A DNA stretch of 64,000 bases. It comes from Patescibacteria group bacterium (GTDB lineage Bacteria; Patescibacteriota; Kazan-3B-28). The stretch is taken from contig JBAZNQ010000001.1 in assembly GCA_041649135.1 (NCBI GenBank), positions 445,438-509,437 of the forward strand, in the 5' to 3' direction. The translations under genes and the position numbers were made by a program. Shown piece after piece: positions 268 through 37,024 of this stretch (position 1 is the stretch's first letter; the number at the start of each line of letters is the position of its first letter). The notes under the pieces were generated by a model. The model was not told the DNA's origin and ran no database searches. It was given only the letters and a program-made list of their open reading frames with translations.

Positions 268-621
268 CTAGCCCTTATCCCACTGATCAGCCCAAAAACC
301 CAATGTCGTGACAACTGAAGCATTCGTACTGGGTTCTAAAACCACTTTTTCTCTACCATACTTGGCAATCAGAGGAGTTATCACTTCGTCAGCCCAGGAT
401 GGAGTTAACACAGCGACCCCTGCGAAATCCAGTTCTATTTTTTCACTTTCAGGCAAGTTCTGTAACAATGACTCAACTACCAGAAACGCCTCCCTGCCAG
501 CCGGCCGAGACGAAAGTGTTGTACCAAATTTGTTCAAAATAATTTTCATCTCTCCCTTAATTAAACCATGTATTCTATCAACACATAAAGACCCCTGTAA
601 ATTTTGACACACCTCGGTCAT
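268..621 (-). CDS. STAS-like DUF4325-type small protein
   Basis: 117-aa ORF with a composition typical of the DUF4325/STAS-like family. Its start codon lies inside a Type-1 repeat (ATGACCGAGGTG = MTEV). Confidence 0.45.
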   Translation of the reverse strand: MTEVCQNLQGSLCVDRIHGLIKGEMKIILNKFGTTLSSRPAGREAFLVVESLLQNLPESEKIELDFAGVAVLTPSWADEVITPLIAKYGREKVVLEPSTNASVVTTLGFWADQWDKG

Positions 622-650
622 TTGACTCGTTTTTATTTAGTCATAGACCA
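595..650. repeat. Type-1 intergenic repeat (core ACCTCGGTCATTTGACTCGTTTTTATTT), truncated copy
   Basis: Near-identical to the copies at 2565-2640, 18670-18750 and 25425-25500. Confidence 0.8.
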
Positions 651-1207: not shown

Positions 1208-1390
1208 CGACTAATTTATTCTTGGCTCAGCAACTGGGTTCAGCATCCCCACCAACGCCAGCCCTCCGAAACTCCAAAGGAGTTGGAGCGAAGGATGGGG
1301 GGAGATAATTAAGGGCTTCTGGACAGGTCTGAACGCATCTCGGTCAATTATAGAACCTTAGGAGAAAAAGAGACAAATTAAAAGGGCGGT
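1205..1390. repeat. Composite intergenic repeat: Type-1 3' portion (TTGGCTCAGCAACTGGGTTCAG) plus a degenerate Type-2 (GGAGATAAT…TAGGAGAAAAAGAGACAAAT)
   Basis: Aligns with 4538-4710 and 18820-18930. Confidence 0.6.
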
Positions 1391-2477: not shown

Positions 2478-2564
2478 GGTGCACCTCCTTTAGGGTTACT
2501 GGTTTCATTATAGCCACAAAATACCCAGCCGAAGGGTTATCTACAAGAATAGCCCTCAACCGAA

Positions 2565-2640
2565 ATAGGCGCTTTGAGGCACCTCGGTCACTTTACTCGT
2601 TTTTATTTGGCTCAACAGCTCGGTTCGGAATCCACGCTCT
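2565..2640. repeat. Type-1 intergenic repeat (GGCGCTTTGAGGCACCTCGGTCACTTTACTCGTTTTTATTTGGCTCAACAGCTCGGTTCGG)
   Basis: Full-length copy. A TATAAT box and an AGGAGG RBS lie between it and the downstream minus-strand gene start. Confidence 0.8.
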
Positions 2641-4351: not shown

Positions 4352-4710
4352 ACCCTTCGGACCTCGGTCACTTTACTCGCCTGCCCGCCCGTAGTCCGGC
4401 GGACGAAGGAGAGTTTTTATTTGGCCCCGTTAGCATTCCTTACTGAAAAACGAAGTTCCTTCTGTTATTTCAGTAGCGTCAGCTCCGGGACGCACCTGTC
4501 TGGCTCTTCTGTAATCCAGTAGATGTCGCCAACATGTGGCTCAACAGCTCGGTTCAGATTGCATCCCCAAGGAGATAATTTGGGACTTTTGAAAGGGAGC
4601 TCGGGCAAGTGGGTCAGTTGTAGAACCCATAGGAGAAAATGAGACAAATGAGACAGTGGCAGAGGGGTGTGTTTCACTATAGATTTTAGTTGGATTTTGT
4701 GACGTAATCA
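4352..4710. repeat. Full composite repeat (Type-1 with a 34-bp insertion, a TGGCTCAACAGCTCGGTTCAG block, and Type-2 GGAGATAAT…CCCATAGGAGAAAATGAGACAAATGAGACAGTGGCAGAGGGG…)
   Basis: Best-preserved copy of the family. The overlapping ORF 4465..4677 (MKHTPLPLSHLSHFLL…) is a translation of the repeat. Confidence 0.75.
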
Positions 4711-4726
4711 CCACCGCTTAATAGAG

Positions 4727-5497
4727 CTAATCTAGGGCGCCAATTATTGCCTTGAAATACTTCACCAATACAATCAGACTAATCCCAACCAGAAACAGAA
4801 CAGTTTGGTAAATCGTCATACTCAACGATCTTTCTCTGATAAGGTCTGGCGTCAACTCGGCCAATGCAACGTACAGAAACACGCCGGCGGTAAAAGGTGC
4901 TGCCAACGTCAAAGACACCTTGAATAAAACTGGTAATAACAGTGACACACCCGCTCCAACAAACGACATAAATACCGCGAGTACATTAATCCGATTTGCC
5001 AATAGATTACCAACCCCCGCTCGACGCAAAATGACATAATTCGAAATCTCTTGCGGTATTTGATGGATAACTACTGCAATAGTCGTAGCAATCCCGATTT
5101 GTAAACCAGCCACATAACTACTGGCTATCACCAAACCGTCAACAAAGCTTTGGGTGGAAAAGCCGAACATATTACTAACCGCCGCATGATTACGTCGAGA
5201 CATCCGCACTTTGTACTTCAACTCTCGCCAAGTAATAGTCTGCTCTAGCAAAAACATCAATACGACCCCAGCTACAATGGATACCGTTACAGATGTAGTC
5301 CAGCCATCGTGCACAGCTTTCGGCAATAGATAAATCAGCGCATCTCCAATCAGCGCCCCCGCCGCCAACGCCATAAAACAACCTAAAATTCGATTAAGAT
5401 GCTCCCCCTTCTTTGGAACAACTTTAACAATAAAGTTGGCCAGGATTGCCAACAACCCAGTGCTAACCAGTGCGTAGATATAAACCCAAGAGGCCAT
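4727..5497 (-). CDS. zupT: ZIP-family divalent metal (zinc) transporter
   Basis: Multi-TM protein with an HQIPQEISNYVIL motif, resembling the ZIP signature HNxPEGxA. Confidence 0.7.
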   Translation of the reverse strand: MASWVYIYALVSTGLLAILANFIVKVVPKKGEHLNRILGCFMALAAGALIGDALIYLLPKAVHDGWTTSVTVSIVAGVVLMFLLEQTITWRELKYKVRMSRRNHAAVSNMFGFSTQSFVDGLVIASSYVAGLQIGIATTIAVVIHQIPQEISNYVILRRAGVGNLLANRINVLAVFMSFVGAGVSLLLPVLFKVSLTLAAPFTAGVFLYVALAELTPDLIRERSLSMTIYQTVLFLVGISLIVLVKYFKAIIGALD

Positions 5498-5559: not shown

Positions 5560-5640
5560 TGGAGACAAATGAGACAGTGGCAGGGCCTACTGTTTTGGGC
5601 TGGATTTTGGAGGAGTTTTGTAGCCTTGTGATGGGATAGG
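5560..5640. repeat. Type-2 repeat copy (GGAGACAAATGAGACAGTGGCAGGG…TTTTGG)
   Basis: Shares the GAGACAAATGAGACAGTGGCAGG core. Confidence 0.7.
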
Positions 5641-9996: not shown

Positions 9997-10071
9997 TGGT
10001 GCCCCCGAAAGGATTCGAACCTTTTCCAACTGCGTAGAGGGCAGTTATGCTATCCATTGCACCACGGGGGC
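9997..10071 (-). tRNA. tRNA, probably Arg (anticodon TCT), with an unusual C at position 33
   Basis: Manual fold: acceptor GCCCCCG/CGGGGGC, T-loop GGTTCGAATCC, encoded CCA. The anticodon loop CCTCTAC gives TCT; the isotype is uncertain. Confidence 0.6.
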
Positions 10072-10147
10072 TGGTGCCGAGAGAGAGAGTCGAACCTTCA
10101 ACCTGCTGCATAGGAGGCAGCTGCTCTATCCATTGAGCTATCTCGGC
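10072..10147 (-). tRNA. tRNA-Arg (CCT)
   Basis: Manual fold: acceptor GCCGAGA/TCTCGGC, anticodon stem GCTGC/GCAGC, loop CTCCTAT, encoded CCA. Confidence 0.7.
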
Positions 10148-10162
10148 ATACACAAAAAACAC

Positions 10163-10237
10163 TGGTGCCGAGGGAAGGAATTGAACCTCCTACGCAGAGC
10201 TTTTCAAGCTCTCGCTCTACCAATGAGCTACCTCGGC
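10163..10237 (-). tRNA. tRNA-Phe (GAA)
   Basis: Manual fold: acceptor GCCGAGG/CCTCGGC, anticodon loop TTGAAAA, T-loop TTCAATT, encoded CCA. Confidence 0.75.
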
Positions 10238-16121: not shown

Positions 16122-16200
16122 ATCTGATTTTGTCTGGACTTCGCCACCCCTTCGGGCATCCTTGTCCTTGATATAGCCCTATAGACAAATGGAGAAAAAT

Positions 16201-17556
16201 ATGGCGAAAAATGAAGCAATTCTGGGAGCTCCCGAGGGGTCTTCGGAGGCCCTTGAGCAACCACAAGGAGCCAAGTACTGTCTCTATGCCCGGAAGTCCT
16301 CAGAGCAGGATGAACGGCAGGCCCTTTCCATAGATAGCCAAATTAAGGAGATGTTGGCGATGGCCGAAAGGGACGGGATAGAGATCGTGGAGACTATCAA
16401 GGAAAGCCACTCAGCCAAGGACTCAGGCCAAAGACCTGCCTTTACCGAGCTTCTACTGAGAATCCGAGAAGGTGATTTCAATGGCATTCTGACATGGGCT
16501 CCAGACCGATTAAGCCGAAATGCCGGAGACCTCGGCTCCCTTGTCGACCTTATGGACCAAGGGCTTCTGCATGAAATCAGAACTCATGGTCAGATATTCA
16601 GAAACTCCCCTAACGAGAAGTTCCTCTTGATGATTCTCTGTAGCCAAGCCAAATTGGAAAATGACAACAAAGGCGTAAATGTTAAGCGAGGGATGCGAAC
16701 CAAATGTGAAATGGGCTGGCGACCGGGAGTCGCCCCCATAGGATATCTCAACAACTACGCAGATAACACTATTACGGTAGACCCGGAAAGAGCTCCCATC
16801 ATCAAAGAAATATTCAATAAGGTGGCCAAGCAGGGAGATTCAGGGCGCGACATTTTCAACTGGATCAACAATGAGACTTCCTTTATTACTAGAGGGGGCA
16901 AAAAAATGCCCTTGAGCACAATTTTTCTGATTCTCAAAAATAGCTTCTACTACGGAGAGTACACATACGGCGAGGGAACCTACCACGGCAAACATGAGCC
17001 ACTTATCACAAAAGAGCTATTTGATGAGGTGCAAGTCAGAATTTCCAAACCCGCCCATGGCCGTCATGGCGAGAAATGTTTCGCCTTCGCCAGAATGATG
17101 ACCTGTGGCCAATGCGGAGCCGGAATTACTGCCGAAGAAAAATTCAAGCGATTAAAGAATGGCGATATGATACGCCATATTTACTACCACTGTACCGACG
17201 GCAAAAGACTCGGCTGTAAACAACCCTATGTTAGGGAGGCAGATCTCATCGAACAATTTGTAGAAATAGTAGACAAGCTAACCTTAGACAGGATAGGGAT
17301 GAAGGATAGGTTACAAGAAGAAATAGACCGCTACAACAAGTTTACGCAAGGCGTGTTGGGGATGGACCCTTCCACTCAGAAGATGCCTCGAGTAGATCTA
17401 AAAATGTACGCCAAGTACATCCTGCGAGAAGGTCGCAACGAAGAAAAGAGAGAGGTGCTGAGCCACATCCAAAACAAAGTTGTACTGAATCAAGGGAAAC
17501 TAAAACTACAGGATAATAAGCAAGCCAACATGCCGGAAGTAACCCGCGTCAACTAA
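16201..17556 (+). CDS. Large serine recombinase (resolvase/invertase N-domain, recombinase domain, zinc ribbon)
   Basis: YARKSS catalytic serine motif, DRLSRN, and a CGQCG…YYHC zinc ribbon. GGAG RBS before ATG 16201. Paralog of 29847..31451. Confidence 0.85.
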   Translation: MAKNEAILGAPEGSSEALEQPQGAKYCLYARKSSEQDERQALSIDSQIKEMLAMAERDGIEIVETIKESHSAKDSGQRPAFTELLLRIREGDFNGILTWAPDRLSRNAGDLGSLVDLMDQGLLHEIRTHGQIFRNSPNEKFLLMILCSQAKLENDNKGVNVKRGMRTKCEMGWRPGVAPIGYLNNYADNTITVDPERAPIIKEIFNKVAKQGDSGRDIFNWINNETSFITRGGKKMPLSTIFLILKNSFYYGEYTYGEGTYHGKHEPLITKELFDEVQVRISKPAHGRHGEKCFAFARMMTCGQCGAGITAEEKFKRLKNGDMIRHIYYHCTDGKRLGCKQPYVREADLIEQFVEIVDKLTLDRIGMKDRLQEEIDRYNKFTQGVLGMDPSTQKMPRVDLKMYAKYILREGRNEEKREVLSHIQNKVVLNQGKLKLQDNKQANMPEVTRVN

Positions 17557-18386: not shown

Positions 18387-18434
18387 GGTTGACCCTCTTT
18401 CCGGTGAGTCGCCCTGGCCTCTAATTGATTAATC

Positions 18435-18590
18435 AAAAGAGGGCAGACCTCACACCTAGTCAACCCATGACTTCTACTCCGAAGAATAGTCATCACGGTA
18501 AGTAGAGCATCTGCCCACCTCTGACCGTGATGACGGAGAAAAAAGTACTACAATTCGGAGTTGTAAATATACGAAAAAGCCATGGGTTGA
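18435..18590. other. Structured inverted-repeat element (GGGCAGACCTCAC…GCAGAGCATCTGCCC; GTCATCACGG…CCGTGATGAC), homologous to 29069-29230
   Basis: Shared blocks AAAAGRGGGCAGACCTCAC, GCAGAGCATCTGCCC and TTGTARATATACRAA. One copy lies near each serine recombinase. Confidence 0.6.
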
Positions 18591-18606
18591 CGCTTCCAGC
18601 ATAGCA

Positions 18607-18640: not shown

Positions 18641-18669
18641 GGCTAATCTGGTTTTTGGGCTCCCAGACC

Positions 18670-18930
18670 GAAGTAGGCGCTTTAAGGCACCTCGGTCATT
18701 TGACTCGTTTTTGTTTGGCTCAACAGCTCGGTCTCGGTTGGTTTTCCACGCTAGTCCTCCATAGCGCTATCTATATCAGAAGAGGCTAATGACCTATTTC
18801 TGATGAGATAAAGCGTAGGATGGAAGGAGATAATCTAGAGGTTTTGAAAGGGTGTTTAGGGGGACAGGTTTTGTGTAACACCCATAGGAGAAAATGAGAC
18901 AAATGCGACAGTACTTTGGATGATTTTTAG
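18670..18930. repeat. Composite repeat (full Type-1 plus Type-2)
   Basis: The Type-1 core ends with …TGGCTCAACAGCTCGGT. Type-2 contains GGAGATAAT…CCCATAGGAGAAAATGAGACAAATGCGACAG. Confidence 0.75.
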
Positions 18931-18985: not shown

Positions 18986-19804
18986 TCATTCTGCAATTAA
19001 TTTTTTAGAAACTGAACTATTCACCTTTTCTACGTACAACCTATCATTCTCTACTCTCAAATCGTTATAGTCCCCAAGATCCTGTCTAAAAGTTTTTTCT
19101 ATTTTATTGCTTTCTAAATCCCAAATAAACAAATAACCGTCGGACCAACGTGCACCAACTGGCGTCCCCCAAAAAGCCATTTTTGTATTATTGCTAAAAA
19201 ATAATACCGGCCAGTAATCTGATCTTCCTCCCATACTTATCAGCTGAACGCTTAAGATCGGCTCAATCGTCATCCCGAGTTCGGCGCTCATTATTGTATT
19301 CCCTTGCCAGCTTCTTTTAAATATCTTATCTCCGGAGATATAAAAATATCCGCTCTCGTCCGGTGCCACGGCTACAATGTTGCCTCCGATATGTATTTCT
19401 TCTATCGTGTTTTCGCCCTCTGATTTTGGCGATCGATGCACAATATAACCGCTTTCCATTGATGAAAAATTCGGATCGCTATATGCAATCAGGGCAAAGT
19501 CCTCTCCGCTATGGATGAGGCGGATATCATTGATTTCGCCTTTCAATTTGTATCGAAAATTTGGCGCATCATTTTTTCTGTCATGAATATTGATGACCGT
19601 AGTTTTCTCTTTGTTCCAAAGCCAAGGAGTATATTGATAGGCACTCAAACTCAATCCGGCACCTGTGTCGTTTGCTACTTCAGTGATATTTGGGAAATAT
19701 AGTTTTTCTGCCACTACAAAGCTGAATACTCCTGCGCCAATAATGACGGAGAAGATAATAATCGCAATTATCTTTAAAGCCTTCTTAGCGATTAAAGTCA
19801 TCAT
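18986..19804 (-). CDS. Membrane-anchored hypothetical protein (N-terminal TM, beta-rich ectodomain)
   Basis: The ORF track starts at a TTG inside the Type-2 repeat. The more likely start is the MMTLIAKK… Met preceded by a TATAAT box. Confidence 0.4.
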   Translation of the reverse strand: MMTLIAKKALKIIAIIIFSVIIGAGVFSFVVAEKLYFPNITEVANDTGAGLSLSAYQYTPWLWNKEKTTVINIHDRKNDAPNFRYKLKGEINDIRLIHSGEDFALIAYSDPNFSSMESGYIVHRSPKSEGENTIEEIHIGGNIVAVAPDESGYFYISGDKIFKRSWQGNTIMSAELGMTIEPILSVQLISMGGRSDYWPVLFFSNNTKMAFWGTPVGARWSDGYLFIWDLESNKIEKTFRQDLGDYNDLRVENDRLYVEKVNSSVSKKLIAE

Positions 19805-19829
19805 CTTGATAATATTATAGATTGTCAGG

Positions 19830-19870
19830 AGAAAATGAGACAAATGCGACGGTGGCAGGGGGGTATCAAA
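19830..19870. repeat. Type-2 repeat copy (CAGGAGAAAATGAGACAAATGCGACGGTGGCAGGGGGG)
   Basis: Fills the 22-bp gap between the ccdA stop and the next gene. Confidence 0.7.
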
Positions 19871-23989: not shown

Positions 23990-24060
23990 CTCAGGCAAGT
24001 GGTAAATGAGACGGTGGCAGGGGGGTCTGTTTCACTGTGGATTTTGAGAGGTTTTTGTGG
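23990..24060. repeat. Type-2 repeat copy (GGTAAATGAGACGGTGGCAGGGGGGTCTGTTTCACTGTGGATTTTGAGAGG)
   Basis: Shares its tail (TTTCACTATAGATTTTAG-like) with the 4570-4710 copy. Confidence 0.7.
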
Positions 24061-24109
24061 CGTAATGATTCTCCAACCTTACCGTACCCAATGAGCAGAC
24101 CCGAAGAAC

Positions 24110-25404: not shown

Positions 25405-25424
25405 GGTTCTATTGTATACCTCCT

Positions 25425-25500
25425 AAAGGACGCTTTGAGGCACCTCAGTCATTTGACTCGTTTTTATTTGGCTCCGTTGGCTAGAAGAAGTCAGGACTTG
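25425..25500. repeat. Type-1 repeat, variant tail (…TTTGGCTCCGTTGGCTAGAAGAAGTCAGGACT)
   Basis: Same head as other Type-1 copies. Shares its tail with 26640-26700. Confidence 0.8.
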
Positions 25501-26097: not shown

Positions 26098-26215
26098 ATT
26101 CTCTGGCTCCCCCTGCTGGATAAGTTTAGAAAAGTTGACTGGATAAAAGTCAGAAGAGAGTTAGATGATTTTGTATTAAAAAATGTCGGGGTTTCACCGA
26201 CTTCTATCGCCTGAG
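26098..26215. repeat. Type-3 repeat/gene-fragment (…LWLPLLDKFRKVDWIKVRRELDDF…*), homologous to 672-770. Begins with TGGCTCCCCCTGCTGGAT, which resembles the tRNA-Asn 3' end TGGCTCCCGCGGCTGGAT.
   Basis: Direct comparison: 15/18 identity with the tRNA-Asn 3' end at 31410-31427. Confidence 0.5.
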
Positions 26216-26639: not shown

Positions 26640-26700
26640 AGTCAAGCTTTTCTTGGTTTGGCTCCGTTGGCTAGAAGAAGTCAGGACTATGCCTGCCTAG
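26640..26700. repeat. Type-1 repeat tail fragment (TTTGGCTCCGTTGGCTAGAAGAAGTCAGGACT)
   Basis: Identical tail to 25470-25500. Confidence 0.7.
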
Positions 26701-29043: not shown

Positions 29044-29068
29044 TGATTAGGAGATAACTTATATCACA

Positions 29069-29230
29069 AAAGGGCAGACCTCACGCTTGGTCTACCCGAA
29101 ACCTCTTGCCCTGTTAGGAGCTGAGCGTCGCGGACAAGCAGAGCATCTGCCCGTCTCTGCCCACGACACCTCTCTCAATAGAGGCCTAACAGGAATTGTA
29201 GATATACAAATTTTGGTTTCAGGTAGACGC
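29069..29230. other. Second copy of the structured inverted-repeat element (GGGCAGACCTCAC…GCAGAGCATCTGCCC; CTGTTAGG…CCTAACAG)
   Basis: Homologous to 18435-18590. Lies about 600 bp upstream of serine recombinase B. Confidence 0.6.
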
Positions 29231-29412
29231 CCACATTTTACCTTGTGCGGACTTTTTTATCCACATTTTTATTTTCGCCCCATAAGATAAAGATATATTC
29301 CAATCGTTGCTCTGGAAGCTGATTTCGCACTAGACAGCCTGTTGCGAATCGATACAATGAAACTAGTTTCGACAGTTCACTTGTTCATTTAGCAATACAA
29401 CCAGTTCGCGGC

Positions 29413-29640: not shown

Positions 29641-29818
29641 TAGTGAGTCCCATAAGCTCCTCAACCTATACGCTGTAGCCCAAGGTGAAAGCCTGAAAAG
29701 CGCCATAGAGCATCTCATCAACTCTGCAATTGAAGCCGACTCAGAGCTTCAGCCACTTTTCATTCAGCTTGCCAACCACTCTGCAACAAAACCAGCAGAA
29801 CCTGCTGGACTTAAATAA
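29615..29818 (+). CDS. Small ribbon-helix-helix-like DNA-binding protein
   Basis: KLVRVSSESHKLLNLYAVAQGESLKSAIEHLI is RHH/Arc-like. Sits immediately upstream of the recombinase. Confidence 0.35.
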   Translation: MKDKLVRVSSESHKLLNLYAVAQGESLKSAIEHLINSAIEADSELQPLFIQLANHSATKPAEPAGLK

Positions 29819-29846
29819 AAACTTCGAGTATTGGTTTGTGTTGACT

Positions 29847-31451
29847 ATGAAATATATTCTCTACGCTAGAAAGTCCTCAGAAAGTGAAGACCGACAAGTA
29901 CTGTCGGTGGATTCGCAAATTCAAGAATTAAAGGCATTAGCCAAACGCAATGGTCAGCAAATAGTAGCTGTCCTTCAGGAATCGATGTCAGCCAAAGACC
30001 CAGAAAAGAGGCCAGTATTTGAAGAAATGGTAGATAGGATCAAGGGCGGAGAAGCTCAAGGTATTATCTGCTGGAAACTCGACCGATTAGCCCGCAATCC
30101 CGTTGATGGTGGAACAATCCAATGGATGCTCCAAAGAGGCGATGTCACGCACATTCAGACAGCTGATAGAAGTTATTACCCCAGCGACAATGTACTTCTG
30201 ATGAGTGTGGAGCTTGGTATGGCAAATCAGTTTATTCGAGACTTAAGTCAAAACACCAAAAGAGGTCTACGCGCAAAGGCAGCTCAAGGACACTATCCTG
30301 GCTATTCAACTATTGGATATATGCACGACCCTCTAGTCCCTAAGGGGAAAAAATATATCATCCCCGACCCAGAACGATTCTCGATTGTCCAACGAATGTT
30401 GCGACTAATAATTGATGGGGAAGCTAACCCACCTCAGGCACTAAAGGTCGCCACAGAAGAATGGGGTCTTAGAAGTAGGCTCGGCAACAAGTTGCCACAA
30501 AGTACTATCTATCGAATCATCAAAGATCCTTTTTACGCAGGATACTATGAATACCCTAAAGCCAGTGGTAATTGGTTTGATGGACTACATGAGGCAATGA
30601 TTACCAGAAGCGAGTACGACACACTCCAAGCAATTATGAAACGACCAAGTAGAACCCGTCCCAAAACCCTAATCTTTGCCTATACTGGCCTAATCTACTG
30701 TGGAGAATGTGGTGGTATGGTCACTGCCGAAATAAAAAGAAAGGTCTTAAAGAATGGGGAAATCAGAATCTACATCTACTATCACTGCACCAAGCGGAAA
30801 AATCCTAACTGCACTCAAAAGTGCATTACCGAAGAGGAGCTAGAATCTCAACTCGTAGCCATTCTTAAGCGAGTAGAACTCCCAGAGGATTTCAGCGAGT
30901 GGGTCATCAAGCAACTAGAGCTCATGAACCGCCAATCTGCCGAAAACCGCCAAGCCATATTGCGCGACCTGCAAGCTAACTACCAAAATTGCACCAAGCG
31001 TATCGACACCCTTATAGACATGCGTACTTCCGAAGCTATAACTTCAGAAGAGTTTGATACCAAGAAAGTTCAGCTACTAGCCGAAAAGGAACGAATCCAC
31101 GAGCTCCTGAATGACAAGGATCGCGATGTTAACCAGACCGTGGTTAGAACCGAGACAATCATAAGATTAGCCGAGCAAGCCACCCTTAAGCTCAAAACTG
31201 GTAGCATTCTCGAGAAGAAGCGTCTAGTATCCCAATTATGTTCGAACCTGACACTGCTAGACAATAAGCTCACCCTAGAAGTAGAAAAACCATTTTCTAT
31301 CGCAGAACGGCTGGCCACAGAAGTGCATGCCATTGCTGAAGGGTTAGAACCGCAAAAAGACCGCTCACAGAGCGACCTTATTGCCGAAAAACTAGTTGAT
31401 TCTGATAACTGGCTCCCGCGGCTGGATTCGAACCAGCGACCCATCGCTTAA
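29847..31451 (+). CDS. Large serine recombinase; the 3' end overlaps tRNA-Asn on the opposite strand
   Basis: YARKSS, DRLARN and a C-x2-C…YYHC zinc ribbon. Start taken at MKYILYARK. Confidence 0.85.
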   Translation: MKYILYARKSSESEDRQVLSVDSQIQELKALAKRNGQQIVAVLQESMSAKDPEKRPVFEEMVDRIKGGEAQGIICWKLDRLARNPVDGGTIQWMLQRGDVTHIQTADRSYYPSDNVLLMSVELGMANQFIRDLSQNTKRGLRAKAAQGHYPGYSTIGYMHDPLVPKGKKYIIPDPERFSIVQRMLRLIIDGEANPPQALKVATEEWGLRSRLGNKLPQSTIYRIIKDPFYAGYYEYPKASGNWFDGLHEAMITRSEYDTLQAIMKRPSRTRPKTLIFAYTGLIYCGECGGMVTAEIKRKVLKNGEIRIYIYYHCTKRKNPNCTQKCITEEELESQLVAILKRVELPEDFSEWVIKQLELMNRQSAENRQAILRDLQANYQNCTKRIDTLIDMRTSEAITSEEFDTKKVQLLAEKERIHELLNDKDRDVNQTVVRTETIIRLAEQATLKLKTGSILEKKRLVSQLCSNLTLLDNKLTLEVEKPFSIAERLATEVHAIAEGLEPQKDRSQSDLIAEKLVDSDNWLPRLDSNQRPIA

Positions 31452-31484
31452 CAGGCGATTGCTCTACCGCTGAGCTACACGGGA
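31410..31484 (-). tRNA. tRNA-Asn (GTT)
   Basis: Manual fold: acceptor UCCCGUG/CGCGGGA, anticodon loop CTGTTAA, T-loop TTCGAAT, encoded CCA. Confidence 0.75.
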
Positions 31485-33875: not shown

Positions 33876-35606
33876 CTACAGTTGATTCAATTCCTTCAAA
33901 AGTTCCGCTACTCTCACTTGATCGTTCTTGGCTTCTGCTTCAGCGATCGCCGCCGCCAATTCATTTCTCTTAACAGTCGCGGACCGGTTCAGCAATAGAT
34001 CTAAATAAAACTTCAGTTCTTTTCCCAAATCCTCTACTGGGACACCCACGTACCCTTGTTCCAAAACCAACATCAATTCCGAAACAGCAGTTTTAGTCGG
34101 TTCAGGTAGTTGTTTCAAAAAATCTTCAGCTCGGAAGGTAGCGTCAGCAGTATACCAAGCGCGTAAACTATCGTAAATGGTATTTGCCAGTCCGGAAGCC
34201 CATTTTATTCTCTTCCCTGCCGTCAGTAGTTCCGACAACAGGCTAGCGTCCAACATCGGTAGCATCACCACCCGTTCTTCCAGCCAAGTCGGGGACATCT
34301 CCTCGGTTGATTCGCCTGCCGGTTTCACAAACTTGCGATTTGGCTTTAACGATTTCTTCAGAGCATCATATAGCACCGCCGGTTCCACATCTACCGTTCG
34401 CGCCAACCGCTTAATATAGTGGTCACGTTCCACGGGATCGTTCACTTTTGTGATCACCGCCAGCAACTCTCGGGTTAGTTGTTTTTTATCTTCTAATTTC
34501 GTTACATCATACTTCCTAGCCGCCACATCAAAATAGAAGTCCATTACCGGCACAGCCGCATCGACCGCCTTTTCCCAGTTCTCCGGATTTTCCTTGATCA
34601 TCGAATCGGGATCTTTATGATTCCCCAGCAACACCACTTTCACCGTCATATCAAAATTATTGGCCAACTCGAGCGCCCTCCGCGTTGCCTCCCCACCCGC
34701 CGCATCCGCATCTAACGACAATATGATCTCCTTGCCATAACGATTTAACATTTGTAGTTGCTGTTCCGTTAGCGCCGTTCCCGAAATTCCTACCACATTT
34801 TTTACCCCTGCTTGATAGGAGCTAATCGTATCCATCTGCCCTTCCACCATCACTACTCGTCCTTCTTGCTGAATGGTTTGCTTGGCCAAATGTAGCCCAT
34901 ATAGCATTTCGCTCTTATGGAACAATGGCGTCTCTGGTGAATTCAAATATTTCGGAATTCCATTCGGATCCAATACCCGACCAGTAAATGCCACCACTCT
35001 ACCAAGACTGTCCCACAACGGGAACATCACCCGTCCCACAAATTTGTCGTATAAAAAGTTACCCTTACGCACTCCCAAGCCAGCTTTTTCAATATCCGCC
35101 TCTTTTGCTCCCTTTCGGATCAAAAACTCCGCCAACGCCCTCCCCGACTTTGGCGCAAATCCAATCCGAAATCCAGCCAGAGTTGCCGGTAGCATCCCCC
35201 GACCTACCATATATTCCTTTGCCGCTCTCCCCTCATCAGTTTCCAACAAAACTTTTTCATAAAACCTTGCCGCCGTTTCGTTGATATTCATCAAAGTCTT
35301 ACGAGTATCGATCCCCGACTGCGGCACTTTGGAAAGCTGGATTCCCGTCTGTTCCGCCAACATCGACAAAGCTTCCGAAAAGCCCATCCCTTCTTTTTCC
35401 ATCACAAACTTAAATACGTCCCCACCCCGTCCACAGCCGAAACAGTGCCAAATCTGTTTGTCAGGGCTAACCATAAACGACGGAGACTTTTCCATGTGGA
35501 ACGGGCACAGCCCTTTGTAATTGGTACCAGCTTTTTTGAGCGGCAAATACCGGCCGATGAAATCGACCAAATCGATCTTGCCTTTAATTTCTTCTAAATC
35601 AGTCAT
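33876..35606 (-). CDS. dnaG: DNA primase DnaG
   Basis: Zinc finger CPFHMEKSPSFMV…HCFGCGRGGD, plus a TOPRIM domain. Confidence 0.9.
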   Translation of the reverse strand: MTDLEEIKGKIDLVDFIGRYLPLKKAGTNYKGLCPFHMEKSPSFMVSPDKQIWHCFGCGRGGDVFKFVMEKEGMGFSEALSMLAEQTGIQLSKVPQSGIDTRKTLMNINETAARFYEKVLLETDEGRAAKEYMVGRGMLPATLAGFRIGFAPKSGRALAEFLIRKGAKEADIEKAGLGVRKGNFLYDKFVGRVMFPLWDSLGRVVAFTGRVLDPNGIPKYLNSPETPLFHKSEMLYGLHLAKQTIQQEGRVVMVEGQMDTISSYQAGVKNVVGISGTALTEQQLQMLNRYGKEIILSLDADAAGGEATRRALELANNFDMTVKVVLLGNHKDPDSMIKENPENWEKAVDAAVPVMDFYFDVAARKYDVTKLEDKKQLTRELLAVITKVNDPVERDHYIKRLARTVDVEPAVLYDALKKSLKPNRKFVKPAGESTEEMSPTWLEERVVMLPMLDASLLSELLTAGKRIKWASGLANTIYDSLRAWYTADATFRAEDFLKQLPEPTKTAVSELMLVLEQGYVGVPVEDLGKELKFYLDLLLNRSATVKRNELAAAIAEAEAKNDQVRVAELLKELNQL

Positions 35607-35804
35607 ATCCTTGCTCCAAATTCTAATTTCGAATCTCTAAATTCTAAACAAATCCCAAACTCTAACTTCCTAAACTGTTTCTCATGCGTCATCCCCGAAC
35701 CGACAACGATAGCACGTCGATATCGGGGATCCAGACAAAAACAGAAACATTTTTATTTTTAAGGTCTAGATCCCCGCCTTCGCGGGAATGACAACCAAGG
35801 AGGA

Positions 35805-35935
35805 CTCTACTCTCTACTCTCTACTCTCTACTCTCTACTCTCTACTCTCTACTCTCTACTCTCTACTCTCTACTCTCTACTCTCTACTCTCTACTCTCTA
35901 CTCTCTACTCTCTACTCTCTACTCTCTACTCTCTA
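35805..35935. repeat. Perfect heptanucleotide microsatellite (CTCTACT) x ~18
   Basis: Seen directly. The ORF-track entry 35788..36003 is a translation of it. Confidence 0.95.
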
Positions 35936-36515
35936 GCGTACCCACTGCCTCCACTATCTCCCCCCAGTTGTCAGCCCGAAGCACCGATGCCGGCAGCCGA
36001 TGATAGCCATTCCAAGGTTTGTTCATAACTATCAATCTTACTCCATGTTTCATCAAAGACTCCACATGCCGAGTATCGTCGTCTATCAGCACCTCACACC
36101 CTAGCCGTTCACATACCTCCCCCTTAGTCAAAGTTGGACTCCCATCTTTGGAGTAGCTATTAGTAAATTCAACCATCTTGAATGAATTGGGGAAGTTTCT
36201 GCCCAACCAATCATAAGTAATTTTCTGCACCACATTCTGTCTGCCAGTTACCACGTATAACTCGTGATCTTTTATCAACTCCTCAATTCCTTCTTGCGCA
36301 CCTGCTACCACCGGTAAATTTTGATAACTCTCTGTCTCAAAGAATCTATGGATATCATCAATCGCTTCCTCTAATGTATTCCCCAGAAATATTGGCCAAT
36401 GAGAATCCATCGCATCGTCAAAAGTCCACTCCGTACCATACTGCAGGTTATACCACTTCAAAAATTCCCGAATCTCCTCCGCCAGCACTTCATCTAAATC
36501 AACCGCAATTTTCAT
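35919..36515 (-). CDS. HAD-superfamily 5'(3')-deoxyribonucleotidase (NT5C-like)
   Basis: HAD motif I MKIAVDLDEVL at the preferred N-terminus. The longer ORF 35919..36587 probably over-extends. Confidence 0.55.
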   Translation of the reverse strand: MKIAVDLDEVLAEEIREFLKWYNLQYGTEWTFDDAMDSHWPIFLGNTLEEAIDDIHRFFETESYQNLPVVAGAQEGIEELIKDHELYVVTGRQNVVQKITYDWLGRNFPNSFKMVEFTNSYSKDGSPTLTKGEVCERLGCEVLIDDDTRHVESLMKHGVRLIVMNKPWNGYHRLPASVLRADNWGEIVEAVGTLESRE

Positions 36516-36526
36516 GCTGCAGTCTT

Positions 36527-37024
36527 TTAAACTCTCGCAAACAAAATCATATAATTGTTGCCAAACTTCTGGGCGCACTTCGGACAATAGGCGTAGTGAA
36601 TATAATATTCCTTTGCCTTTTTATTCTGGCCAGCCAAATACTGGTTCATCTGCCCAATGAATTTTGGGATAGAGTTATACCCGCCATCAAACACCTTAGC
36701 CACAAACGTCCCAGACAATGTTACATTTTTAGCATCGGGCACCACCCCAGTGGTTGAAATATGAATGTCGGACCGAAACGCCGTTGGATCCGAAAACAGC
36801 ACCAAAACACTTCCCTTGTCCTCCGCCACCATTTTGGCATCCTCCACCATTTTCCACATCTTGGTAATTTTGCTACCGATCATTGAAGGAAGTGGCATAT
36901 GAAAAAACGTCGGGATACTTTCCTTGATAAACGGCTTATTCTCCCAATTAAATTCTTTCCCGTCCCACCGAGCCACATCGAACTGCGGGCAACACACCTG
37001 ATCGTTCTGAAGTTGGTTATTCAT
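36527..37024 (-). CDS. Hypothetical protein
   Basis: 165-aa ORF. Confidence 0.4.
   Translation of the reverse strand: MNNQLQNDQVCCPQFDVARWDGKEFNWENKPFIKESIPTFFHMPLPSMIGSKITKMWKMVEDAKMVAEDKGSVLVLFSDPTAFRSDIHISTTGVVPDAKNVTLSGTFVAKVFDGGYNSIPKFIGQMNQYLAGQNKKAKEYYIHYAYCPKCAQKFGNNYMILFARV

Follow-up and report, generated by a model that had tools for sequence, protein, structure and literature searches.

A modular repeat family beside tRNA-Asn in a Kazan-group patescibacterium: candidate attachment-site modules of integrative elements

What is the composite intergenic repeat at positions 4352 to 4710 in a 64,000-nt genome stretch of a Patescibacteria group bacterium (lineage Kazan-3B-28; contig JBAZNQ010000001.1, positions 445,438 to 509,437; hereafter, the window), and what do its relatives in the same window have in common with it? 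The initial annotation, made from the sequence alone, described it as one member of a repeat family and offered a small RNA (sRNA) or leader peptide element, a promoter cassette, or a recombination site as possible roles. The described sequence is present, and shuffle tests show that the family is real and nonrandom. Among the roles offered, the evidence favors the recombination site, on account of junctions at tRNA ends, linkage to genes for large serine recombinases (LSRs), and cassette reshuffling. We therefore read the repeats, with a probability of roughly 0.55, as terminal or attachment-site modules of integrative elements and small gene cassettes with the tetranucleotide TGGC as their insertion site.

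Anatomy of the composite copy and extent of its family

The stretch from 4352 to 4710 is the richest copy, a chain of the units A, I, U1, and U2, every one of which terminates in TGGC. Its parts, all on the + strand, are as follows.

4352..4425, +: module A copy 4 ("Type-1" of the initial annotation), reading ...GGACCTCGGTCACTTTACTCG, a 34-nt insert, and TTTTTATTTGGC, and terminating in TGGC
4380..4413, +: 34-nt hairpin insert CCTGCCCGCCCGTAGTCCGGCGGACGAAGGAGAG, exclusive to copy 4 of module A
4426..4536, +: module I, 111 nt, with TGGC on both sides (4422-4425 and 4537-4540) and several small hairpins
4537..4542, +: TGGCTC junction, a putative crossover, the reverse complement of the tRNA-Asn CCA end (31407-31412 region)
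4537..4662, +: U1 (the "Type-2" body), ~125 nt, the family found by nhmmer; conservation begins exactly at TGGC
4610..4629, +: hairpin P3 (TGGGT...ACCCA), with compensatory changes in the family
4631..4662, +: invariant 32-nt core AGGAGAAAATGAGACAAATGAGACAGTGGCAG, the 9-mer AATGAGACA twice in tandem and then TGGC; its columns are invariant in 24 diverse copies
4650..4675, +: hairpin HT, in which GAGACA (4650-4655) pairs with TGTTTC (4670-4675) and the loop holds TGGCAG
4657..4703, +: U2 tail, ~45 nt, TGGCAGAGGGGTGTGTTTCAC...TTTTGTGAC

We interpret module A copy 4 as the arm at the right end of an integrative element. The remaining four module A copies lack the 34-nt insert and read ...ACTCG/TTTTTATTTGGC (a slash marks a boundary here and below). 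The insert is related to variable hairpins in other U1 copies (...GTAGTCCG..CGGACGAAGGA...), and inserts like it are found in U1 copy 2 (window 1250-1310) and in L006, one of the family loci numbered with L below. Module I, always immediately left of U1, recurs in L006 (7046-7156) at 86% identity and partially in L095 (5512-5569). In its stems, the window and L006 differ by compensatory changes (CTGAAA..TTTCAG versus CTGTAA..TTACAG), and the G-U pairs of its closing stem favor the minus strand; the idea that it is the remnant of an interrupted RNA gene was rejected, as no continuation was found. U1 is composed of a pseudo-tRNA 3' end (TGG-C-7 nt-T-arm-like), AAGGAGATAAT, a second T-arm-like hairpin, and the invariant core. 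From the end of U2 to the stop codon of the converging ZIP transporter gene (4727..5497, - strand) is a distance of 24 nt. A string quoted by the initial annotation does exist, ending GGCAGGGGGG at the copies at 19842 and 24004, but copy 4 itself reads GGCAGAGGGG.

The window holds at least 10 copies of the family, all within 600 to 26,700, all on the + strand, and all intergenic, whereas the housekeeping part at 32 to 64 kb has none, and no extra copy lies in a further 5.3 kb left of the window. Local blastn and nhmmer searches placed copies at 603, 1209-1378, 2559-2634, 4352-4713, 5562-5629, 18667-18912, 19773-19866, 24004-24071, and 25420-25498, and two associated end types recur, X (672-739 and 26104-26171) and Z (25467-25498 and 26657-26688). 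The module A motif GGTCAYTTKACTCG has five copies in the window versus 1.2 expected, a number reached in 0 of 100 shuffles; the core AAATGMGACRGTGGCAG has four versus 0.1 expected, again with 0 of 100 shuffles. DNA uptake sequences were rejected as an identity for the family, because the 9-mer AATGAGACA (with at most one mismatch) occurs 20 times against 17.4 expected and is thus not enriched.

Beyond the window, a scan of a genome collection with the module A motif gave real matches only in metagenome-assembled genomes (MAGs) of candidate division Kazan and other Patescibacteria, and an identity with the small dispersed repeats (SDRs) or miniature inverted-repeat transposable elements (MITEs) of cyanobacteria was dropped on these grounds. 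The core is present in many metagenomes, with 77 loci in one scan, and an nhmmer profile built from 30 copies found 86 element matches in 56 loci from Kazan and other Patescibacteria. The family alignment has a sharp left edge at TGGC, a variable body that sorts into classes, and the invariant core block. Searches of Rfam at the gathering threshold and at E <= 10 gave no relevant match for the family. In peat and bog metagenomes, an unrelated G+C-rich conserved family (GGAGACTCCGGCGGGGTCTGAGAGCACGGC...GAGACAAATGCGACGGTGGAAGTCGGACC...; loci L022, L038, L048, L050, L051, L056, L064, L083, and L086) was a chance match to the search pattern and resembles a structured RNA or a mobile intron.

The copies in the window are mutually 72 to 78% identical, whereas orthologous copies in other genomes are 95% identical; U1 copy 4, for instance, has 95% identity with its counterpart in L016, and the flanking genes have 78 to 88%. 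This pattern bears on whether the element could be a nonautonomous transposon, either a MITE or a palindrome-associated transposable element of the IS200/IS605 type, which would insert strand specifically 3' of TGGC, terminate in TGGC, and be mobilized in trans. Such a transposon would be consistent with TGGC at both edges of module I, U1, and U2, with the similar T-arm-like hairpins near both U1 ends, and with the uniform orientation in a replichore-like stretch of constant GC skew. However, greater divergence within a genome than between genomes is the reverse of a recent burst, 100+ loci yielded no empty site for U1 alone, no transposase, HUH or other, was seen in the window or the loci (recombinase families were scanned in the window open reading frames [ORFs]), and the element stays bound to its preceding gene in differing contexts. 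We consider this explanation quite improbable.

Junctions at tRNA ends and linkage to recombinase genes

The copies occupy an accessory block, or island, at 0.6 to 31.4 kb of the window, which is bounded by a tRNA gene and carries two LSR genes.

31410..31484, -: tRNA-Asn(GTT), the integration target in the favored reading; the TGGC at the junctions corresponds to its CCA end
16189..17556, +: LSR1, 455 aa, with Pfam domains Resolvase, Recombinase, and Zn_ribbon_recom, in the same orientation as the repeats
29730..31451, +: LSR2, 573 aa, whose ORF crosses the TGGCTC junction into tRNA-Asn

The TGGC of module A directly abuts the CCA end of tRNA-Asn in L008, L021, and L005, with rpoD next (...ACTCGTTTTTATT/TGGCTCC...). 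A-like modules abut tRNA-Trp at TGGC in L102/L103, L104, and L105/L107, there as TGGCAGGGG, which is the reverse complement of the tRNA-Trp acceptor end. When the junctions are aligned, L008, L021, and L005 read A-TTTGGCTC/tRNA, window position 18713 reads A-TTTGGCTC/AACAGC, and window position 31407 reads GATAAC-TGGCTC/tRNA. At this junction, the window has 12.7 kb extra between A-TGGCTC and TGGCTC-tRNA-Asn, a segment that begins with U1 and finishes with LSR2. The segment from LSR1 to module A is 94 to 96% identical between the window and L008 and the tRNA-Asn/rpoD regions only ~75%, indicating that the A side moves horizontally, with the junction at TGGC(TC).

Module A is linked to the LSR genes as well as to the tRNA ends. 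In all seven LSR1-family lineages examined (the window, L008, L004, L099-101, L102/103, L104, and L105-107), an LSR gene on the + strand is followed by two minus-strand genes, a structured RNA, a terminator, and an A-type module with terminal TGGC, and the module lies 1.1 to 2.7 kb downstream of the LSR gene; in the window, module A copy 6 sits 1.1 kb downstream of LSR1. What comes after this TGGC varies: tRNA-Asn in L008; tRNA-Trp in L102/103, L104, and L105/107; an X-type pseudo-tRNA end in L004 and L099-101; and U1 in the window.

U1 is found at the other end of such units, 7.7 to 17 kb upstream of a co-oriented LSR gene, twice in the window and also in METB01 (L016 + L004), L047, and L107. 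One window unit comprises U1 copy 6 after A-TGGCTC (18713), 12.7 kb of mostly minus-strand cargo, LSR2, and TGGCTC-tRNA-Asn; the other comprises TGGCTC/U1 copy 4 (4537), phage-like genes, and LSR1. Classes a to c of U1 open with TGGCTC, 7 nt, and a T-arm-like hairpin, as tRNA-Asn does, whereas classes d to f and the U2 tail open with the tRNA-Trp-like TGGCAGGG, and each U1 class co-occurs with the corresponding A type. By geometry and sequence, the left arms of U1 and U2 are probably degenerate tRNA 3' ends. Orientation follows strict rules: the copies share a single orientation in 19 of 19 multicopy loci, and the LSR gene was co-oriented with the element in 5 of 5 cases in the first set of family loci.

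LSR1 and LSR2 are the only recombinases among ~30 scanned island ORFs. Phage_integrase had no match among these ORFs, the metagenome loci having been scanned less than exhaustively. The LSR family is very large, with more than 8,000 relatives at E <= 1e-30. Since they are the sole recombinases among the scanned ORFs and are located at unit ends, the LSRs are the prime candidates for catalyzing the insertions. As to LSR2, its ORF overlaps the opposite-strand tRNA-Asn gene by 42 nt, and its C-terminal codons therefore come from the presumed integration target.

Two further observations concern the surroundings of these modules. The structured RNA candidate between the LSR-adjacent genes and module A is ~165 nt long and lies at window 18430-18600 (- strand), with a second, diverged copy at window 29050-29235 and others in L008 (2930-3110), L102 (11075-11265), L104 (11035-11225), and L099 (11215-11400). 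It has a 16-bp closing helix, inner hairpins, and 16 pairs with compensatory changes; RNAalifold gives -50.8 kcal/mol on the minus strand versus -37.1 kcal/mol on the plus strand, and no Rfam match was obtained at E <= 10. In L034 (614-853, - strand), a 230-nt element with a tRNA-Asn-like start (TGGCTCCCGGGGTCGGACTC), an inverted-complement end (GAGTCCGACC), and several G+C-rich inner hairpins is located between a terminator and a U1 copy.

In the reading that we favor, the insertion target would be TGGC, the reverse complement of the discriminator base and CCA end of a tRNA, tRNA-Asn here and tRNA-Trp in relatives, and TGGC may be the actual crossover. Module A would represent the final 30 to 60 bp of the right end of LSR-carrying elements, and U1-core-U2 would represent the left end of both elements and one- or two-gene cassettes, with a degenerate tRNA 3'-end copy at its start. 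As every integrated unit would present TGGC and a tRNA-like arm anew, newcomers could dock beside older units. Repeated integration and decay would build the stack of ~31 kb at tRNA-Asn, in which every junction consists of a right arm, TGGC, and a left arm, and in which the units, many of them reduced to one or two cargo genes plus the element, all point the same way. The composite at 4352 to 4710 would then be a multiple junction, A/I/U1/U2. Re-creation of the docking site by every insertion would account for at least six stacked junctions, their uniform orientation, and the nested composites. The invariant core may be a protein recognition site or a secondary docking site.

Several points weigh against this reading. 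Classical LSR attP and attB sites have little in common beyond the central dinucleotide; they are 40 to 50 bp long, with imperfect dyad symmetry around a 2-bp crossover, and an att arm is ~25 bp. In the present case, donor and target have similar, tRNA-like right arms, an arrangement atypical of LSRs; dyad symmetry around TGGC is clear only in L105/L107 (AGCTGTT-GGCAG-AACAGCT); and ~125 nt of U1 plus a 32-nt core at 95% identity exceed what an att arm needs. Flanking repeats of 22 to 113 nt also fit homologous or tyrosine-type recombination. Partial copies break off at various places, namely after 27 nt, in P3, in the core, or after GACAGT, so that many truncations reflect decay rather than one crossover point. 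Neither a truly isogenic empty site nor a circular form was seen, and viral contigs in IMG/VR gave no match with three patterns. Pairing of P3 and HT that is compatible with G-U is kept on the + strand only, which an att role does not explain. Owing to this conservation, the hairpins, the long repeats, the break points, and a promoter match described below, an integron-like system and a transcription-level module, as well as the transposon discussed above, have to be weighed as rivals.

Cassettes, hairpins, and signals for transcription and translation

The genes next to the elements behave like exchangeable cassettes. Of 80 genes that lie beyond a tail, 69 run on the opposite strand, often at a distance of 0 to 15 nt, and on the other side of the element 59 of 71 genes are likewise opposed. 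Neighbor proteins are highly diverse (265 of 330 clusters are confined to one locus), and a number of genes retain their own 3' element amid changed neighbors, including a 230-aa gene (L095, L044, and L098), ZIP (five loci), a 256-aa gene, and the reverse transcriptase of a diversity-generating retroelement (DGR). Similarity between such gene-plus-element units begins exactly at TGGC, and that of the 230-aa unit ends at the start codon. The ZIP gene is flanked by a 22-nt direct repeat of the core (4641-4662 and copy 5): where L016 has a continuous U1-core-tail b, the window has 921 bp extra, containing ZIP, between duplicated cores. Similarly, the 32-nt TTTGGCTCCGTTGGCTAGAAGAAGTCAGGACT of the copy 9 Z end, which begins TTTGGCTCC, recurs exactly at 26657-26688 and flanks a 1.19-kb two-gene unit, and the DGR module in L070 is flanked by a 113-nt repeat of 99% identity.

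Reverse transcriptases near the elements deserve a separate remark. Direct repeats of 133 to 138 nt with 83 to 88% identity (L070, 3101-3238/3588-3725; L043, 8394-8526/8860-8992) sit upstream of reverse transcriptases with an LGNLTSQ motif and look like the template repeat/variable repeat (TR/VR) pairs of DGRs carried as cargo between two U1 copies. Retromobilization by neighboring reverse transcriptases was ruled out; in view of the DGR-type LGxxxSQ motif and the TR/VR-like repeats upstream, these enzymes are themselves cargo.

The covariation check proposed with the initial annotation revealed no structure of the whole element but two short, strand-specific local hairpins. P3 has a covariation score of 0.225 versus 0.137 in shuffles (0 of 500 as high), with compensatory changes from G-C to A-U. 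HT (GAGACA/TGTYTY) is paired in 93% of cells, versus 27 to 63% with the 3' partner slid, and its variation is limited to exchanges between G-C and G-U on the + strand. A tRNA-like RNA on the gene strand was rejected as an identity for the element, because class a has no T-stem pairing and the G-U pattern favors the other strand.

Both the cassettes and the hairpins would suit an integron-like system, in which U1-core-U2 is the analogue of attC, folded as the single strand antisense to the cassette genes, and the recombinase is another enzyme, the LSR elements being mere neighbors. Arrays of co-oriented, mostly single genes with an element within 0 to 15 nt of each, the recurrence of gene-plus-element units across contexts, and the core duplications flanking inserted genes are in line with it, as is the tolerance of P3 and HT for G-U (G-T) only antisense to the genes, like attC bottom strands. 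However, the R''/R' boxes (RYYYAAC/GTTRRRY) are not conserved, being fortuitous in class a and absent in classes d to f and most tails. The site ends do not pair (z for a duplex of the 5' end with the tail is scattered around 0), and an attC-like hairpin of the whole site was rejected for this reason and for want of an RNAalifold consensus. The scanned island ORFs include no IntI-type tyrosine recombinase, and the break points are scattered. We regard this system as unlikely. A bolder combination, which we hold only tentatively and well short of even odds, is that Patescibacteria have a serine-recombinase-based counterpart of integrons: the pseudo-tRNA-end modules U1 and U2 would be reusable docking sites; single genes, DGRs, restriction-modification (R-M) systems, and phage-like elements would be captured serially at tRNA genes; and the core and hairpins would act as a recognition signal, possibly single stranded, with an outward promoter for the next cassette.

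The signals for gene expression read into the repeat by the initial annotation fared less well. Its terminator-like hairpin and T-run in Type-1 did not hold up: the hairpin before TTTTTATTT is the 34-nt insertion seen in one copy, its fold (z = -0.27) is not better than that of shuffles, and a terminator scan called no terminator at Type-1. In relatives, the T-run directly adjoins the CCA end of the opposite-strand tRNA gene. A stable sRNA is likewise unsupported, given the lack of an Rfam match and of an RNAalifold consensus on either strand (-1.6 kcal/mol on the + strand and -3.5 kcal/mol on the - strand); a few single copies fold well, but most z-scores of single sequences are near 0.

Of the promoter cassette, what is left is a possible secondary property. 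A minus-strand match, TTGTCT-18-TATAAT, spans the core and the P3 loop at some copies; it fits at 10 of 12 positions in copy 7, directly upstream of gene 18986..19843, and is also present at copy 5, upstream of ZIP. The same hexamers are found in U1 classes c, d, and f, while class e has no -10 match and copy 4 is weak, and no sigma-70 promoter was found on the + strand of A or U1. Within the integrative reading, this promoter-like match may drive the next gene in addition. As a rival, the repeat could be an intergenic module that acts on transcription and moves along with mobile genes, combining a weak bidirectional terminator or 3'-untranslated-region element for the preceding gene with an outward sigma-70-type promoter for the next one or, in a variant, producing a cis-antisense RNA on the + strand. 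Besides the promoter-like matches, the position between codirectional genes, the conservation above that of the flanking genes, and the strand-specific hairpins speak for such a module. It is nevertheless missing from the 32 kb of the window that hold housekeeping genes, and the promoter signal is incomplete as described; the stems are short and A/T-rich with 12- to 20-nt loops and would make poor terminators, of which the scan called none; and the sharp TGGC boundary and the linkage to tRNA ends and LSR genes are left unaccounted for. We therefore doubt this explanation.

The mini-ORFs MRQMRQWQRG, MRQMRRWQGG, and MRRWQGG do exist, and their AGGAG-N3-ATG start is invariant, but the peptides are not conserved. 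This invariant arrangement argues for translation of MRQMRQW... from its own Shine-Dalgarno sequence, as a leader peptide or small protein. Over 48 distinct copies, however, the frames vary in length between 7 and more than 50 codons and have no residues in common past MRQMRQW(Q), loop indels of lengths not divisible by three shift the frame although the nucleotides downstream are conserved, and the frame is antisense to the flanking genes, which makes translation scarcely credible. The idea that minus-strand copies donate start codons to real genes came from ORF 268..621 (- strand) alone, a DUF4325 gene that is opened by ATGACCGAGGTG ("MTEV") inside module A copy 1 without a ribosome-binding site. 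Its start was probably annotated too far upstream, the in-frame ATG at 546, preceded by AAGGGAGAG, being the more plausible one.

Genomic context and comparison with known systems

The remaining copies in the window differ in completeness and in the modules that they combine.

603..640, +: module A copy 1, then a small hairpin unit, then an X-type pseudo-tRNA end (672-739)
1209..1380, +: U1 copy 2, diverged and broken off within the core
2559..2634, +: module A copy 3 and the first 30 nt of U1
5562..5629, +: partial copy 5, the 22-nt core GAGACAAATGAGACAGTGGCAG and a tail of type b
18667..18912, +: module A copy 6, TGGCTC, and U1 copy 6, in which U1 terminates ...GCGACAGT/ACT
19773..19866, +: partial copy 7, part of P3 and the core, with the minus-strand promoter-like match described above
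23999..24071, +: partial copy 8, half of the core and a full U2 tail
25420..25498, +: module A copy 9, followed by a Z-type pseudo-tRNA end

The accessory block that holds them carries R-M genes, a ParB-methylase fusion, terminase-like genes, the ZIP transporter, NUDIX hydrolases, membrane proteins, and the two LSRs. Within the LSR1-bearing phage-like element, a tRNA trio (Arg-TCT, Arg-CCT, and Phe-GAA, at 9997-10237) adjoins the terminase-like and ParB-methylase genes. The 32- to 64-kb part of the window contains the housekeeping genes rpoD, dnaG, nusA, a clpC-like gene, dnaE, and leuS, and the gap there between ORFs 33876..35606 and 35919..36587 includes ~19 tandem copies of the heptamer CTCTACT (window 35777-35965).

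To our knowledge, mobile elements of the Candidate Phyla Radiation (CPR) are barely charted. The A/TGGC/U1-core-U2 modules could serve as landmarks for delimiting integrated elements and cassette arrays in MAGs, and they yield a first map of accessory gene collection in Kazan-group CPR bacteria, where ZIP transporters, NUDIX hydrolases, R-M systems, and DGRs accumulate beside tRNA-Asn and tRNA-Trp. They also link a very large LSR family to candidate attachment sites; LSR/att pairs are wanted as genome-engineering tools. Both the invariant core and the structured RNA that travels with the elements raise concrete, testable questions.

Composite islands of the staphylococcal cassette chromosome (SCC and SCCmec) grow by tandem accretion at rlmH through the large serine recombinases CcrAB and CcrC, with direct repeats of ~18 bp. 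The island described here resembles them in having LSRs as its only recombinases (LSR2 scores weakly against XisF and CcrA/B/C models), in stacking cassettes one way at a single chromosomal site with a short integration sequence repeated at each junction, and in containing many units without a recombinase of their own. It differs in its target, which in the window is a tRNA CCA end and not a protein-coding gene, in its CPR host, in junction repeats embedded in long modules (A, ~55 nt; U1-U2, ~170 nt), and in left arms that mimic tRNA 3' ends.

With tRNA islands and prophages of tyrosine integrases it shares a target at a tRNA 3' end, an element-borne copy of that end, and tandem arrays. Unlike in those islands, the scanned ORFs include no tyrosine integrase, the segment in common with the tRNA is only TGGCTC, and the tRNA-like copies are degenerate and unable to replace the tRNA end. 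The likeness to integron arrays and attC sites (Vibrio VCR and integrase-less attC clusters) lies in co-oriented single genes of unrelated functions with a repeat after each, in the first recognition of both as intergenic repeat families, and in pairing specific to the strand antisense to the genes; in place of R''/R' core sites, a whole-site hairpin, and IntI, however, the present elements have tRNA-like arms and the invariant core of 32 nt. MITEs and small dispersed repeats (Correia, RUP, ERIC, and cyanobacterial SDRs) are likewise short, intergenic, modular, and nested, with hairpins, whereas the present family is confined rather than dispersed genome-wide, has no terminal inverted repeats, is diverged within a genome and conserved between genomes, and is linked to tRNA ends and recombinase genes.

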